From: Candidatus Hydrogenedentota bacterium
GTDB taxonomy: Bacteria > Hydrogenedentota > Hydrogenedentia > Hydrogenedentales > SLHB01
Length of the DNA: 60,797 nucleotides
Assembly (NCBI GenBank): GCA_045863335.1
Contig: BTVY01000045.1
Coordinates: 1 to 60,797 of the forward strand
Direction: 5' to 3'
A program made the translations under genes and the position numbers. Within the stretch, counting starts at the first letter, position 1. Every line of letters starts with the position of its first letter. Positions 52,654 to 57,351 of the stretch are shown in pieces. The notes under the pieces were generated by a model. That model ran no database searches, was not told the origin of the DNA, and saw only the letters and a list, made by a program, of their open reading frames with translations.

Positions 52654-55200
52654 ATGATAGAACGCCGGCCCGCATTGGCGGCATGGATCGTTGCAGTTCT
52701 GCTGAGTTGGTGCGCGCTTGCGCAGGAAGCGCCGATTCGCGATCGCCTCAAGTGGTCGGAACTTCCGCCGCTTCCACAGGTCATGTCGGGACACTTCGCC
52801 GGCGTGGCCGACGGATCGCTCGTCGTGGCCGGTGGCTCGTATTTTGAAGTGTCGCCGTGGCAGGGCGGCGAGAAGATCTGGCTCGACGGCGTGTATGCCC
52901 TCGGCGATCCCGCAGGGACATGGGCCGAAGCGGCTTCATTACCGCATGCGCTCGCGTACGGCGGTATGGGCAGCGTGTCAAAAGGCATGGTCCTTGCCGG
53001 AGGTAGCGACGGACAGCAGCATTATGCGACCACCTATCTCCTCTCGCGTTCCGGCGATCAACTCGCCATCAGTGAATTGCCAAATCTGCCGGAGGCTTGC
53101 GCATTCTCCGGGTCCGCCGTGTTGGGCAACACCATCTACGTCGCGGGCGGCCAGCGTGCGCCGGATTCGACGGAGGCCATGCACACGTTCTGGGTGCTCG
53201 ACACGTCTAAAGACGACGCCGTCTGGCAGGCATTGGAACCATGGCCCGGCCCGGCGCGTATCTTACCCGTCGTGTTTGCACAGGAGGGATCGGTGTTCGT
53301 CGTCAGCGGTGCCGACCTCGCGCCCGGCCCGGACGGCACCGCGAAACGCACCTACCTGACGGATGGCTATCGCTACACGCCGGGGCAAGGATGGAAGGCC
53401 ATCGCGCCGTCGCCCCAGCCCATGGTCGCGGCCGCCTCCGCGCCGATCGGACCTTCGTCGGTGATGGTGTTCAGCGGCGATGACGGCAGCCTGGTCGACC
53501 GCAATGCCGAACTCGGCGACAATCATCCGGGATTTCCATCCTCGGTCTGGTCCTACAACACGATTACAAACACGTGGACCCAGGCGTCGGAGATGCCCGA
53601 AGCAGTCGTCACGACGGCGGCTGTTCTTTGGAAAGAACATATCGCGATTCCGGGAGGCGAAGATCGTCCCGGCCATCGTGTTGCCGCCGTCCAGAGTGCC
53701 GCCGCAGACCATACCGCCCGAAAAGGTTTGGTCGCGCCGGACTATATCGTCATGGGATTGTACTTCGCCTTTCTTGTGGCGATAGGTTTCTACTTTTCCA
53801 AACGCGAGAAGAGCAGCGCGGACTTCTTTCTGGGCGGCAAGCGCGTGCCGTGGTGGGCGGCGGGCATCAGCATCTTCGGCACTTTGCTCAGCGCCATCAC
53901 GTTCCTGGCCGTGCCGGCGACGTCGTTCCGGACGGATTGGGTGTATTTCGTGGGGAACGCCTCAATTATCATCGTGGCGCCGATCGTCGTGTACGCTTAT
54001 CTTCCGTTCTTCCGGCGATTGGATATTACCAGCGCCTACGAATATCTGGAGAAACGGTTCAACCGCGCGGTGCGGCTGTTTGGCAGTGCAGCATTTCTGC
54101 TCTTCCAGTTGGGCCGCGTCGGCGTGGTGCTCTACCTGCCGGCGCTGGCGCTGTCCACGTCTACCGGGCTCGACATCCGCCTTTCCATCATCGTCATGGG
54201 GGTTTTGTGCACGCTTTACACGGTGCTCGGCGGCATCGAAGCCGTCATCTGGACCGACGTGCTGCAAGTTTTCGTGCTGCTCGGCGGCGCGTTGCTGTGT
54301 CTCGTGGTCATCGTGATTGACGTCGACGGCGGACTGTCCTCCGTCGTCAGCACCGGCATGGCAGACGACAAATTCCGGCTGGCGAACTGGACCTGGGAGT
54401 ACACCGCCGCGGCGTTCTGGGTCGTGGCCATTGGGCGGACGTTGGAAAACATGATCCCCTATACGACGGATCAGACCGTCGTGCAGCGATACCTCACGAC
54501 GCCGACGGAGAAAGACGCGGCACGCTCCATCTGGCTGGGCTCGTTCATTTCCATTCCCAGCGCTATTCTCTTCTTCGGCGTGGGCACCGCGCTCTACGCT
54601 TTCTACAAGGGGCATCCGCAAGAACTCGACCCCTCGCTCGCGACGGACGCGATTTTCCCCTTGTTCATCATCGAACAGCTTCCCGCAGGAATCAGCGGGT
54701 TGATTATCGCCGCCGTGTTTGCCGCGGCCATGTCGTCGCTGGACTCGAGTCTCAACAGCGTGGCGGCCGTTGTGGTGACCGACTTCTACAAGCCGCTCGT
54801 CCGTGGTTCGAATGAAGGGACCGCCTTCATCCTGGCACGGTGGATCACGGTCCTCATTGGCGCGCTCGGCACGGGCACCGCGCTGCTTATGACCTTCATG
54901 GAGGACATCGGCTCCGTCTGGGAACACTACATGAAGTTGATAGGCCTGTTCGGCGGCGGGTTGGCGGGGCTATTCGCCTTAGGCATCTTCACACGGCGGG
55001 CAACAGGTGCCGGCGCGCTCGTCGGCGCGGCAGTTGGCGCGGTCGTGCTGTACTTCGTGCAGTCGCAGAGCAATCTCAGTTTCCTGCTCTATTCGACCGT
55101 CGGCATCGTCACCAGTTTCGTCGTCGGATATCTCGCCAGCTTTGTCATTGGCAAGAACAACGATCTCGCCGGGCTCACCTGGACAACGCGAACGCGCTGA
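52654..55200 (+). CDS. Kelch beta-propeller (NanM-like) fused to a sodium:solute symporter (SiaT-like)
   Basis: Signal peptide; Kelch repeats (VAGG, LAGG, YVAGG, VSG, IPGGEDRPGHR); SSS motifs FFLGGKRVPWW, LSAITF, SAYEYLEKRF, GGIEAVIWTD, DQTVVQRY, AAMSSLDS. Confidence 0.9.
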   Translation: MIERRPALAAWIVAVLLSWCALAQEAPIRDRLKWSELPPLPQVMSGHFAGVADGSLVVAGGSYFEVSPWQGGEKIWLDGVYALGDPAGTWAEAASLPHALAYGGMGSVSKGMVLAGGSDGQQHYATTYLLSRSGDQLAISELPNLPEACAFSGSAVLGNTIYVAGGQRAPDSTEAMHTFWVLDTSKDDAVWQALEPWPGPARILPVVFAQEGSVFVVSGADLAPGPDGTAKRTYLTDGYRYTPGQGWKAIAPSPQPMVAAASAPIGPSSVMVFSGDDGSLVDRNAELGDNHPGFPSSVWSYNTITNTWTQASEMPEAVVTTAAVLWKEHIAIPGGEDRPGHRVAAVQSAAADHTARKGLVAPDYIVMGLYFAFLVAIGFYFSKREKSSADFFLGGKRVPWWAAGISIFGTLLSAITFLAVPATSFRTDWVYFVGNASIIIVAPIVVYAYLPFFRRLDITSAYEYLEKRFNRAVRLFGSAAFLLFQLGRVGVVLYLPALALSTSTGLDIRLSIIVMGVLCTLYTVLGGIEAVIWTDVLQVFVLLGGALLCLVVIVIDVDGGLSSVVSTGMADDKFRLANWTWEYTAAAFWVVAIGRTLENMIPYTTDQTVVQRYLTTPTEKDAARSIWLGSFISIPSAILFFGVGTALYAFYKGHPQELDPSLATDAIFPLFIIEQLPAGISGLIIAAVFAAAMSSLDSSLNSVAAVVVTDFYKPLVRGSNEGTAFILARWITVLIGALGTGTALLMTFMEDIGSVWEHYMKLIGLFGGGLAGLFALGIFTRRATGAGALVGAAVGAVVLYFVQSQSNLSFLLYSTVGIVTSFVVGYLASFVIGKNNDLAGLTWTTRTR

Positions 55201-55216
55201 CCGTCGTCGCTCGCGT

Positions 55217-55558
55217 TCAGCCCGGGGGCCAGGCCAGATCGCGGCCGCCGAGGACGTGCAGATGAACGTGAAACACGCTCTGCCCCGCCTGGGGTCCACA
55301 GTTCACGACGAACCGGTAATCCGTGAGTCCGTCGAGTTTTGCCACGGCATTCCCAACCAGCATCAACCCACCCAACACCTCCGCGTCGCCATCGGACGCG
55401 TCGCTGACGCGGGCGATGTGGCGTCGCGGAACGACCAGCACATGCGTCGGCGCGCCCGGATTGATATCGCGGAACGCGTAGTAGTTCTCATCTGAGTAGA
55501 CTTCCGTGGACGGAATCTCGCCTCTGAGTATCTTGCAGAACAGGCAATCTTCGGCCAT
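55217..55558 (-). CDS. hinT: Histidine triad nucleotide-binding protein
   Basis: DCLFCKI, AFRDINP, HVLVVP, GQSVFHVHLHVLGGR, WPPG; GGAGG RBS. Confidence 0.93.
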   Translation of the reverse strand: MAEDCLFCKILRGEIPSTEVYSDENYYAFRDINPGAPTHVLVVPRRHIARVSDASDGDAEVLGGLMLVGNAVAKLDGLTDYRFVVNCGPQAGQSVFHVHLHVLGGRDLAWPPG

Positions 55559-55678
55559 GTGAATTGACCTCCCATGAGTAATATCATCACTGGGTTAAGC
55601 GTAGAAGAACGGGATCGGTACCCGCAAATCCGTATATGGTTTCACTGCTCCATGCTTGAGGAGTACACTTTTGGCGCC

Positions 55679-56686
55679 ATGGAATCAGGCATCGCAGCCG
55701 GTACGCGGGTTTGGGTCGCTGACAAGAAGACCCCCTCCCTAGCCCTCCCCGTCCACGGGGAGGGTACCGGAAGCCCTACTTTCGATCCACATTTGAATAC
55801 AATCGATGTGTTTGATCTTCGTCCTGTGGAAGATCTGCGGGGCCGAGACGCGGTCTACTCCGTCGATGGTTCGACCACCGCTGTTTTGAGTGCTACCGCG
55901 GCAAAGCAAAATGAATTGATTATCACGATTGAGCCGTGCTGTGATCTGCCCGCGATTTCGGTAACCGCCAATATGCTCATCCTGGGCCGGAGGCGGCCAC
56001 GCTCGCTCGGCGGCAACCGCGATTGGACCGGAAGCCCGGCCGGAAATCAGCCCCACCGAAGACATCTCCGCCGGGAAATGTCGCCGCCGGAACGGGCACT
56101 GTGGCAACGCCTCAAAGGTCAGGCGCTCGGGTATAAGTTCCGCAGACAGCACTCGATCGGCCCGTACATCGCAGATTTCTATTGCCGAGAAGCAAATCTG
56201 GTCGTGGAAATTGACGGCTACTCCCATTCGGGAGTTGATTCCTACAAACATGACCGACGAAGGGATGCGTTTATGCGGTCCCTGGGGTTGCGGGTGCTGC
56301 GGATCAGTGCCAGTACTGTTGGCAAGGAACTGGATCAAGTGGTATCCACAATTGAAGGTGAATGCCAACGACCGCTCGTATCGCTGGAGGACGCCGAATG
56401 GGTTCGAGCAGATCAATTATGCCCGCGCGACATACTGTATGTTCCTGGTCCCAATTCGCAGGATTGTCCGGTACCTTTCACCAAGAACGTTCAAAAATCA
56501 ACGTTAAAGGGAGGTCTTGTTCCCTCCCTGTGGACGGGGAGGGCTAGGGAGGGGGTCTTCAAGTCCACCCGAATCGACTCCATTAGTTCTCAATGCGGCG
56601 TCAACACCATGCATAGCCTGGTACTGGAAAGAGACGTGGCCTGTGCGCTCGAATCAGCATTCGTCCGGTTCCCGCCCGGCGTTTGA
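55679..56686 (+). CDS. DUF559 (Vsr-like PD-(D/E)xK) endonuclease embedded in a degenerate Hint/intein-like scaffold
   Basis: LRREMSPPERALWQRLK...KFRRQHSIGPYIADFYC...VEIDGYSH...DRRRD...VLRI is DUF559; flanks resemble intein blocks. Start could be 55574, 55652 or 55679. Confidence 0.8.
   Translation: MESGIAAGTRVWVADKKTPSLALPVHGEGTGSPTFDPHLNTIDVFDLRPVEDLRGRDAVYSVDGSTTAVLSATAAKQNELIITIEPCCDLPAISVTANMLILGRRRPRSLGGNRDWTGSPAGNQPHRRHLRREMSPPERALWQRLKGQALGYKFRRQHSIGPYIADFYCREANLVVEIDGYSHSGVDSYKHDRRRDAFMRSLGLRVLRISASTVGKELDQVVSTIEGECQRPLVSLEDAEWVRADQLCPRDILYVPGPNSQDCPVPFTKNVQKSTLKGGLVPSLWTGRAREGVFKSTRIDSISSQCGVNTMHSLVLERDVACALESAFVRFPPGV
55726..55767 (+). repeat. Left arm of a 42-bp inverted repeat inside the DUF559 gene (REP-like)
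   Basis: gaagaccccctccctagccctccccgtccacggggagggtac; 40/42 identical to the reverse complement of 56519-56560; internal palindrome CCCTCCCCGT-cc-ACGGGGAGGG. Confidence 0.9.
56519..56560 (-). repeat. Right arm of the 42-bp inverted repeat inside the DUF559 gene
   Basis: gttccctccctgtggacggggagggctagggagggggtcttc. Confidence 0.9.
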
Positions 56687-56799
56687 CTGGGTTTCCGGCG
56701 CTGTTTAGACTGGGGAGTTGAATCCATGCAGTGACCCCTCGCGGCGCCTGTTTCCTGGGCGAATACCAAGCCGCCGCGAGGCGAAAAGGAGGACTTACC

Positions 56800-57351
56800 A
56801 TGGCCAAGGTATTGGTTCCGCTGGCGCAGGGCTGTGAAGAACTGGAAGCCGTTACCATCATCGACCTGCTGCGGCGCGCGGACATCACGGTTGTCACCGC
56901 GGGACTCACGGACGAACCCGTGAAAGCGAGCCGCAATGTCACCATCATCCCCGATAAGAATCTGGACGAGGCTTTGAAGGAAGACTACGACATGGTGGTG
57001 CTTCCCGGAGGCCTTCCGGGCGCGGACAACCTGAACAACGACGAGCGCATCCACGGTGTCTTGAAGAAGATGGTGGAGAGCGGCAAGTTCGCGGGCGCGA
57101 TTTGCGCGGCGCCGATTGTGTTGGCGAAGGCCGGCGTGCTGAGCGGGAAAAAGGCCACGAGTTATCCCGGGTTCCTGGACAAGATGAACTTGCCCGACGT
57201 GACGTACACCGGCGGCGCCGTGGAACGGGACGGCAAGATCATCACCTCCCGCGGGCCCGGCACGGCGATGGATTTCGCCCTGGCCGTCATCGAGATGTTG
57301 AAGGACAAGAAGACGCGGGACACGGTTGAGAAGGCGCTGGTCCGGAATTGA
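56800..57351 (+). CDS. DJ-1/PfpI family protein (YajL/ThiJ-like)
   Basis: GCEELEAV, LPGGLPGA, AICAAP nucleophile Cys, TSRGPGTAMDF; AGGAGG RBS. Confidence 0.92.
   Translation: MAKVLVPLAQGCEELEAVTIIDLLRRADITVVTAGLTDEPVKASRNVTIIPDKNLDEALKEDYDMVVLPGGLPGADNLNNDERIHGVLKKMVESGKFAGAICAAPIVLAKAGVLSGKKATSYPGFLDKMNLPDVTYTGGAVERDGKIITSRGPGTAMDFALAVIEMLKDKKTRDTVEKALVRN

Follow-up and report, generated by a model that had tools for sequence, protein, structure and literature searches.

An extein-less, splicing-dead intein carrying a DUF559 nuclease between hinT and a DJ-1-type gene of a Hydrogenedentota bacterium

The element and its nuclease core

The window analysed here, a stretch of 60,797 nucleotides (nt) from a Candidatus Hydrogenedentota bacterium (assembly GCA_045863335.1, contig BTVY01000045.1; genome G000), contains an open reading frame (ORF) at 55574–56686 on the plus strand that occupies the spacer between hinT, a HIT-family gene (55217–55558, minus strand), and a DJ-1-type gene (56800–57351, plus strand). 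Of the three candidate ATG starts of this ORF, ATG 55679 alone is shared by the three carrier genomes (G000, G005 and G003), and the in-frame extension upstream of it, 55574–55678, is not conserved in G003. From ATG 55679 to 56686 the ORF comprises 335 codons and a stop, and its product is an extein-less, splicing-dead intein in which a Hint scaffold embeds a DUF559 nuclease. The protein is an intein by descent with a complete modelled fold, it has no host protein, and it is encoded by an insert of about 1 kb whose nuclease is under purifying selection. An initial annotation of this DNA had proposed a free-standing degenerate intein, and every peptide that it quoted was found in the translation of 55574–56686 at the place given.

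The sole Pfam domain above threshold is DUF559 (PF04480; E 4e-27, 94.7 bits against a gathering cut-off of 20.6), whose match spans residues 162–264 of the 370-amino-acid (aa) frame, or 127–229 counted from ATG 55679, the numbering used below. NCBIfam returns a sub-threshold DUF559 match alone (equivalog score 61.4 against a cut-off of 218). The Vsr-like nuclease core (56057–56365, plus strand) is supported by the PF04480 match, structure matches and invariant columns, and keeps the residues E177, D179, H183, D192 and R195. Specifically, E138, W142, F154, R155, Q157, D166, F167, E177, D179, D192 and R195 are invariant in sets of 61 and of 42 family sequences, and all of them are present here. 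Structural comparison of the nuclease part gives Z 14.6 to the DUF559 structure 3hrl, Z 11.2 to I-Bth0305I (3r3p_B; 96 of 98 residues, root-mean-square deviation (rmsd) 3.0) and Z 10.8 to Vsr (1cw0). Both the score and the core residues place the domain in the DUF559 family, bearing out the well-preserved core claimed at first. Upstream of the core, the linker RPRSLGGNRDW (55994–56026, plus strand) connects block B to the nuclease and is specific to the family; in alignment A1 its residues R106 and W116 are invariant and P107, R108, G111 and G112 nearly so, and the RPRSLGG motif served as the pattern for a genome scan.

Stand-alone DUF559 proteins (3hrl; E. coli PRK09767-type) match the core at 39–41% identity with an rmsd of 1.3–1.6, the matches beginning at about residue 121–134; unlike the window protein, they are about 100–130 aa long and carry no Hint flanks. 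A gene of this kind also occurs elsewhere in G000 (C1:103988–104290, locus L002), as a 139-codon frame with 41% core identity and without Hint flanks, and has counterparts in G004, G005 and G016. The DUF559 core alone is further found inside long leucyl-tRNA synthetases, type I N6 methyltransferases, a methionine-synthase-like protein and a helicase (P0219–P0224, P0226, P0229, P0231–P0234), which represent other in-frame hosts of the nuclease.

Intein ancestry, fold and loss of splicing

Whole-protein searches of Pfam and NCBIfam recover neither a Hint nor an intein family, even with E allowed up to 10, so that a sequence-to-family search alone would have missed the scaffold. A near-length search recovered 41 homologues, 32 of which cover 43–91% of the query, of which the DUF559 core makes up about 28%; the remaining nine cover 24–31%, which corresponds to the core alone. 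The homologues share the pattern Cys-x-Arg-Lys-Gly-Thr-Arg-Val-Trp...LWLT.DH.VL...RPRSLGG...DUF559...W..A..L..GD.V...VYDLEVE..HSF.TE.C.VHN, followed by CGSGTT, which we take to be the S-adenosylmethionine (SAM)-binding motif I of a methyltransferase. A search for longer proteins gave 53 matches, including 35 proteins of 590–1340 aa in which 47–76% of the query is matched at 37–53% identity, and 27 of these 35 also carry PF01555, the N6/N4 DNA methylase family; the best in-host match is about 53% identical to the window copy. In G013, which belongs to the same family as the window organism, the element lies between ...LDPT and CGSGTTAY... of an uninterrupted 1311-codon methyltransferase frame and, as checked at the DNA level, retains Cys1, T..H, His-Asn and Cys+1. 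Intact inteins in open methyltransferase frames were likewise found in DNA of L046 (labelled Gemmatimonas) and L050 (labelled Anaerolineaceae), and L045 (labelled Anaerolineae) has the same arrangement with a frame that runs off the locus. Judged from their sequences, these relatives are genuine inteins in motif I (DPT|CGSGTT) of large DNA methyltransferases, so that the search for intact copies in host genes suggested by the initial annotation ended in enzymes of 1000–1300 aa.

The flanks of the window protein follow the same order of intein blocks. Block A is represented by the strand GIAAGTRVWVAD (residues 4–15; 55688–55723, plus strand; alignment A1), with a GGC Gly codon at the Cys1 position. 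The N-terminal Hint strands through block B (55817–55990, plus strand) begin with LRPVEDLRGRDAVYSVDG (55817–55870, plus strand) and include block B itself, ISVTANMLIL (55955–55984, plus strand), in which T96-A-N-M99 stands in place of TxxH; they are supported by BLASTP of the N flank, by the family profile against inteins of the Protein Data Bank (PDB) and by a pLDDT score (predicted local distance difference test) of 83–97. The Hint strand AEWVRADQLCPRDILYVP (56393–56446, plus strand) contains WVRADQLCPRDILYVP and carries the W..A..L..GD.V motif, and lies downstream of the nuclease here, where it would normally follow block B directly; across the family W241, G250 and D251 hardly vary, and in the window copy Arg stands at 250. 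Degenerate blocks F and G (STRIDSIS..MHSLVLERDVACALESAFVRF, ending AFVRF; 56564–56671, plus strand; alignments A1 and A4) complete the series, with R330-F331 at the His-Asn position.

A profile of 61 family members matches solved inteins, namely Mja KlbA (2jmz) at E 1.1e-6 and the Mtu RecA mini-intein at E 3.8e-5, with weaker matches to DnaX and RadA inteins, and also finds 3hrl, a DUF559 structure (E 2e-31). On its own, the 104-residue N flank is colinear with the G013 intein (BLASTP E 2e-6), and the C flank alone reaches E 0.055 only, for the W..A..L..D strand. Against a family hidden Markov model (HMM) built without the window copy and its near-orthologues, block F scores 3.4 bits in the register that had first been proposed, a score equalled by 18 of 2000 shuffles. 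Blocks F and G are the weakest part of the intein-block resemblance, and most of the scaffold is beyond chance. The homologues thus do not display the pattern that would have spoken against an intein, namely unconserved flanks around a coding sequence of about 120 aa consisting of the DUF559 core.

An AlphaFold model (mdcc287c15388) from the 42-sequence alignment A4 has a mean pLDDT of 81.9, falling below 50 only in residues 21–40 and 262–290, which are repeat-derived loops, and reaching 79–97 in blocks F and G. Superposed with VIA-align, the model matches the splicing domain of Mtu RecA at Z 18.0 over 132 of 139 residues (rmsd 2.0), the Ssp DnaB mini-intein at Z 18.1 over 143 of 158 residues (rmsd 2.4), a bacterial intein-like domain at Z 18.0 and Hedgehog (1at0) at Z 17.8; among the superposition chains listed, 50 of 50 are Hint-fold proteins. 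An earlier model, from an alignment with long exteins, had a pLDDT below 50 at residues 260–335, yet reached Z 14.6 to mini-inteins. In the model, then, a complete Hint beta-fold is present, which answers the structural check of the flanks called for at the outset.

The nuclease occupies an unusual position within this fold. Residues 54–78 of the RecA mini-intein (ending ...TPDHKVLTE) and residues 79–141 (starting YGWRAAGEL...) are contiguous and align to profile positions 73–98 and 234–293, and the approximately 135 profile positions between those two blocks are the linker and DUF559. This contiguity places DUF559 in the turn immediately following block B. The nuclease site lies upstream of the strand that precedes the endonuclease site in canonical inteins, and does so across the whole family, intact members included; the non-canonical placement noted in the initial annotation is recovered here by alignment of the RecA mini-intein with the family profile.

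Alignment with intact relatives reveals that all four splicing positions have changed. Specifically, residue 1, Cys in intact relatives, is Gly4 in the window copy (GGC, 55688–55690); the block B T..H (T.DH) is T96..M99 (TANM); the C-terminal His-Asn is R330-F331; and the +1 Cys is P332. With substitutions at every one of these sites, namely Cys1, the block B His, the terminal His-Asn and the +1 nucleophile, the protein cannot splice. Only three residues (MES) precede Gly4, and four (PPGV) follow VRF before the stop. None of the features of a class 1 self-splicing intein (Cys or Ser at position 1, block B His, His-Asn with a +1 nucleophile, host exteins) is therefore found. Nineteen relatives supplied a profile of the 24 residues ahead of Cys1, which scores nothing in the 39 residues upstream of Gly4, and a by-eye N-extein match (FGAM against FDPM) was dropped since that extein profile gave no score. 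In addition, the exteins of the G013 methyltransferase have no match in G000 (99.4% complete), G003, G004 or G005, where the sole hits of these searches are the element and a small, unrelated DUF559 gene. The Gly at C1, the His-to-Met change in block B, the loss of the terminal His-Asn and the near absence of exteins, all claimed beforehand, hold in the alignment. A still working intein or auto-processing Hint domain, to which the complete modelled fold would lend itself, is hardly credible in view of these four replacements, and with three residues before and four after the domain there is nothing to splice.

Forms without exteins recur in other phyla. An exhaustive profile-free search returned 22,007 DUF559 relatives at E up to 0.001, 57 of which reach E 1e-30, mostly with Hint flanks. 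Part of the scaffold is present in 108 of 185 collected sequences; nine of the 108 end within 4 residues of the terminal-Asn position, and several have Gly, Ser or Asn instead of Cys1. At the DNA level, L048 (labelled a Bacteroidetes metagenome-assembled genome, MAG) is an extein-poor copy with intact catalytic residues that adjoins a GHMP kinase gene, and L052 is a degenerate copy beside DUF1385 and SpoIIE-type genes; both lie amid unrelated housekeeping genes, and neither has a methyltransferase nearby. Two decaying hosts, both labelled Armatimonadota MAGs, look like intermediate stages between intact and extein-less forms: in L049, Cys1 has become Tyr and the frame is broken inside DUF559, and in L047 the frame is broken before block A. 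In L051, a further decaying host, the C-extein is truncated. L054 was rejected as a family member, being a 134-aa frame without family features. A tree of the 73 of 185 sequences that pass a coverage cut, from columns that exclude blocks A and G, contains 29 in-host sequences, 37 with a degenerate or absent C-terminal junction and seven of unknown state; the forms are interspersed and at least 17 state changes are required. Under cruder labels, in which a lack of block G coverage counts as degenerate, the well-supported branches alone force seven changes. The window copy groups with P0003 and P0004 in a clade that has a long branch and 100% support in the Shimodaira–Hasegawa-like approximate likelihood ratio test (SH-aLRT).

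Insertion, selection and expression at the locus

Five congeners (G001–G005) were compared, making six genomes of the genus with G000. The hinT and DJ-1 genes are adjacent with the element between them in G005 (87% identity, frame open) and G003 (77%), adjacent without it in G004, where the spacer measures 227 nt, and on different contigs in G001 and G002. The element was found in three of the six genomes of the genus including G000, and no orthologue occurs in the other genera sampled. Homology to the empty G004 spacer extends on the left to about 55627 and resumes on the right at 56671, and a DNA contig of an independent metagenome study (run X2), about 90% identical in hinT, skips 55562 to 56673 and has 239 other letters between. 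The left junction of the insert of about 1 kb can be placed approximately at 55628–55650, where a short GGTTT (55638–55642) resembles the target; this placement is imprecise. The right junction lies in the last two intein codons (56663–56673), as indicated by both G004 and the X2 contig, and its position means that it falls in the codons where His-Asn would be. The terminal ..PPGV-stop is read from spacer DNA, and some 40–50 nt of unassignable sequence precede Gly4. In a search for a target-site duplication, the junctions share only a 4–5-nt GGTT(T), or a 9-nt GTTTSACTG with one mismatch, which is too short to call.

Synonymous divergence (dS) in the flanking genes exceeds 1.1 to G004, against 0.18–0.44 among the three carriers. 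The simplest reading is one insertion in the common ancestor of the three carriers; the alternative is a precise loss of the element in G004. A metagenome scan for close relatives yielded nine loci, none with the flanks at high identity, and did not recover the contig that encodes P0004. The empty site sought by the hinT–DJ-1 synteny comparison is thus the 227-nt spacer of G004, and this site, the X2 contig, the lack of an extein remnant and the lack of a host methyltransferase homologue in the genome agree with the earlier proposal that the intein has departed from its host gene.

Selection was assessed among G000, G005 and G003 as the ratio of non-synonymous to synonymous divergence (dN/dS; Nei-Gojobori), sub-region counts being small. 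Across the three carriers the 1008 nt contain no indel at a dS of 0.21–0.30, and dN/dS over the whole ORF is 0.29–0.37. The linker and DUF559 together have a dN/dS of 0.07–0.14 (5–11 non-synonymous and 20–22 synonymous differences), with the value of 0.07 between G000 and G005 resting on 5 non-synonymous against 20 synonymous differences. The N-terminal Hint part gives 0.49–0.54, the C-terminal part 0.35–0.54 and the post-nuclease strand 0.07–0.21, and a fast-evolving loop from this strand to the right repeat arm (56444–56518, plus strand; pLDDT about 40) gives 0.73–0.91. These ratios clearly point to maintenance of the nuclease by purifying selection, and the Hint scaffold is under weaker but real constraint. 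The open frame and nuclease motifs reported as kept are accordingly matched by the ratio in the linker and DUF559.

Similarity among the carriers is a mosaic (54500–57276, and 55500–55707 within it). The flanking genes pair G000 with G003 (dS 0.18–0.20, against 0.35–0.44 to G005). Over the 117 nt of 55591–55707, G000 and G005 are identical and G003 differs by about 30%, only five differences separate G000 from G005 in 55500–55590, and both variable loops of the element pair G005 with G003. This pattern suggests exchange between lineages. The near-identical stretch of G000 and G005 enters the first hinT codons, and the rest of hinT differs at 10–19 per 100 nt.

Contigs of an RNA-Seq library (run X3) match 55986–56139 and 56193–56690 with zero differences, and the flanking genes are matched too; 55644–55939 has no X3 contig, a contig gap that carries no proof. 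X19, X20 and the remaining small-share runs entered no claim. A promoter-like TTGACT-17-TAGACT (56683–56711, plus strand), a consensus match only, overlaps the ORF stop and is also kept in the empty hinT–DJ-1 spacer of G004. It is probably the DJ-1 promoter and lies outside the element, the insert having landed just upstream of it. A 225-codon antisense ORF (55739–56416) was rejected as a gene because it has four stops each in G005 and G003, which marks it as a shadow frame. Further upstream, in an 848-codon ORF (52654–55200), the N-terminal third resembles a secreted repeat domain and the rest a multi-pass transporter, by visual judgement of the translation only.

Two surface loops of the protein are encoded by a 47-nt inverted repeat inside the frame, whose arms are 91% complementary and account for the repeat-derived peptides recognised at first. 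The left arm (55721–55767), read as ..TPSLALPVHGEG.., corresponds to the low-confidence loop of model residues 21–40, and the right arm (56519–56565), read as ..LVPSLWTGRAREG.., is oriented the other way. Both arms belong to a dispersed palindromic repeat, similar to repetitive extragenic palindromic (REP) elements, whose unit measures about 45 nt and has the stem CCCTCCCC/GGGGAGGG. With up to 2 mismatches allowed, this palindrome has 13 sites in G000 (control 0), and with up to 3 allowed it has 16, for example C5:125943, C37:71775 and C27:33842; there are 20 in G005, 8 in G003, 4 in G004, 2 in G001 and 1 in G013, an expansion in the element-carrying clade. At C5:125943 of G000, two adjacent inverted copies resemble a REP doublet forming hairpins (REPIN), and the short-read contigs of X2 break at palindromic repeats. 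The arms do not mark the ends of the insert; they are REP-like elements belonging to this lineage, inserted in frame into two surface loops. Similar hairpin-derived peptides stand in the loop before block F in P0007, P0043 and P0072, and relatives of different phyla have their own GC-rich hairpin-derived peptides (PPHAGGQ, LPACGEGWGGG, PSPLTGRAREG) in the same two loops, after block A and before block F. Either these two loops serve as tolerant landing sites, or they belong to the biology of the element. The hairpin loop reads GTCCAC on the left (55751–55756) and GTGGAC on the right (56530–56535) in G000 and is reversed in G005 and G003; both arms are flipped together, preserving arm-to-arm complementarity.

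Several observations weigh against the reading favoured below, of an intein-derived protein that still works as a free-standing nuclease. On the side of the scaffold, both AlphaFold alignments include intact inteins, so that the model may be pulled towards the family fold; block G was undetected by sequence alone (BLASTP; block F/G HMM) and is placed only by multiple alignment and by the model (pLDDT 79–97 over residues 291–330). The relative P0004 (76% identical) stops soon after the post-nuclease strand, which means that the C-terminal Hint part can be lost, and the degenerate labels of the tree come from predicted, possibly partial proteins, with only three cases checked on DNA. On the side of maintenance, the Hint-part dN/dS of 0.35–0.54 amounts to moderate constraint only and the counts are small (for 55817–55990 between G000 and G005, 4 synonymous and 3 non-synonymous differences). 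The G003 copy has an in-frame TAG at codon 17, with a further TAG upstream of the start, so that the full-length protein is not needed there or the copy is dying. The RNA evidence consists of assembled contigs of an RNA library, is compatible with DNA carry-over and leaves the N-terminal third uncovered, and a simple scan found no promoter-like site for the ORF itself. The mosaic, finally, is drawn from three MAGs with switch points near repeats, where chimeric assembly is possible.

Part of this would suit an inert relic, a dead intein fragment in decay, with the open frame and the low dN/dS explained only by too little elapsed time or by recombination between close relatives. Decay once fixation is reached is what the homing-endonuclease cycle predicts, and the G003 stop, the truncated P0004, the fast loop and the absence of a promoter-like site in the scan fit such a course; nevertheless, a neutral stretch of 1008 nt at this dS should gather indels and stops, and there is one TAG only. 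The nuclease ratio of 0.07 between G000 and G005, the retention of all invariant catalytic-core residues and the RNA-library contig over the 3' two-thirds likewise speak against decay, and a relic is considered unlikely. A precedent is Arth_1007 of Arthrobacter FB24, which is a bacterial intein with almost no exteins (66 aa in total), without the block B His and unable to splice, as in the window copy (PMC3196547). According to the same source, Arth_1007 is a class 3 mini-type intein judged an inactive pseudogene, whereas the nuclease of the window copy is under strong purifying selection and the copy is conserved at a single locus of three species.

The stop in G003 would leave unaffected a product that starts at Met134 (ATG 56078) and consists of DUF559 and the tail, such that only the nuclease matters and the N-terminal Hint half would be a leader that is either not translated or not needed. 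Residue 134 aligns with the first position of many stand-alone DUF559 proteins (for example P0100, P0128 and P0184), and P0100 is itself a DUF559 with a C-terminal Hint relic and no N half. Such a truncated product is nonetheless decidedly improbable: the N-terminal Hint half has no indels and a dN/dS of 0.27–0.57 rather than about 1, the model folds it confidently with the C-terminal strands into one domain, and the start codon at 55679 is conserved in the three genomes.

A probable free-standing nuclease among known systems

The favoured reading, of somewhat better than even standing, is that the window protein is probably still an active free-standing site-specific DNA endonuclease that uses its Hint domain as a scaffold. 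Its ancestor was a DUF559-type intein with intact kin in motif I of N6/N4 DNA methyltransferases, and about 1 kb covering the intein, with no recognisable extein, lodged in the hinT–DJ-1 spacer, on the simplest reading in the common ancestor of three congeneric species. In the model the protein still folds as a full Hint domain with the Vsr-like nuclease between block B and the next strand, and the dead Hint domain may act as scaffold and DNA-positioning module for the nuclease, as the Hint domain does in PI-SceI and HO. Persistence could come from homing into empty copies of its own spacer, in a selfish, WHO-like manner, or from a benefit to the host.

The closest known relatives are the intact DUF559-type methyltransferase inteins (the G013 frame, L046, L050, P0053 and P0139), homologous over the whole length at 31–45% identity. 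They share with the window copy the block order, the RPRSLGG linker, the place of the nuclease and the hairpin-peptide inserts in the same two loops. The intact inteins keep Cys1, T..H, His-Asn and Cys+1, in frame in an enzyme of 1000–1300 aa, whereas the window copy has lost all four together with its exteins. In the literature searched, which leaves most subscription journals outside its coverage, DUF559 inteins that sit contiguous and in frame in bacterial methyltransferases, and extein-less derivatives of them, are provisionally without a description.

Among related nucleases, the catalytic fold of EDxHD enzymes such as I-Bth0305I is the same as that of the window nuclease by the Z scores given above; the assignment to DUF559 is by sequence, and the likeness to EDxHD is by fold alone. 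In the literature, Vsr-like (EDxHD) homing nucleases occur with split inteins and group I introns, and the family also includes free-standing members (PMC2677866, PMC3239194). As described there, they are separate ORFs between split intein halves, in contrast to the window nuclease, which is fused in frame inside a contiguous Hint domain. Further sources report Vsr-like nucleases in antisense orientation within phage inteins (10.1101/2025.01.02.630785), LAGLIDADG inteins inside phage methylases (PMC9957025) and a "DUF559-containing gene" listed, without analysis, among the intein genes of a cyanobacterium (PMC9403480).

The nearest parallel in lifestyle is provided by HO and WHO of yeasts, the WHO elements being described as selfish homing genes for FBA1 (PMC7282813). 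Like the window element, HO and WHO are in that account intein-derived, free-standing and splicing-independent, stand beside housekeeping genes, and are actual or proposed site-specific nucleases (PMC7282813). They are eukaryotic and combine a LAGLIDADG nuclease with a zinc-finger domain, whereas the window protein is bacterial and Vsr-like and carries no Pfam family other than DUF559 at E up to 10. The relation is one of analogue, not membership. For a comparison with HO/WHO-like homing, the coexistence of filled and empty hinT–DJ-1 sites and the mosaic similarity are known here from sequence alone. A bolder proposal, possible rather than probable, is that the element represents the first recognised bacterial counterpart of yeast WHO/HO: a Hint-DUF559 family would repeatedly escape the methyltransferase SAM motif and survive as intergenic free-standing homing genes, with the dead Hint domain reused for DNA recognition, and the window copy would home into the empty hinT–DJ-1 spacer or cut intein-less methyltransferase genes on incoming DNA.

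Host-level selection on a domesticated nuclease, which might for example cut intein-less methyltransferase genes, the ancestral homing site, of incoming phages, plasmids and restriction-modification systems, is very improbable. The unchanged position across three species and the strongly constrained nuclease are in keeping with it, and since the genome lacks the cognate methyltransferase target, the ancestral specificity could act on foreign DNA only; HO further shows that intein-derived nucleases can be domesticated (PMC7282813). Specificity lends it no support, however, and the element was found in only three of the six genus genomes with no orthologue in the other genera sampled, one copy carries a stop, and the mosaic fits a selfish element at least as well.

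For the reading as a free-standing endonuclease, the significance lies in what the element implies about intein biology. The complete Hint-nuclease unit kept intact outside any gene indicates that the module can have its own life in bacteria. The usual view is that inteins survive solely because splicing keeps them hidden within essential genes, and to our knowledge the free-standing life of an intein-derived nuclease with its scaffold is experimentally documented only for HO and WHO in yeasts. The relatives constitute an apparently undescribed intein family, in which a contiguous, in-frame Vsr-like DUF559 lies between block B and the next strand and the host site is methyltransferase motif I. 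Moreover, the range from intact inteins through decaying hosts to extein-less copies makes the steps of intein escape and decay open to direct study. If active, the protein would be a compact new type of site-specific nuclease, with the empty spacer or methyltransferase motif-I DNA as its target candidates.

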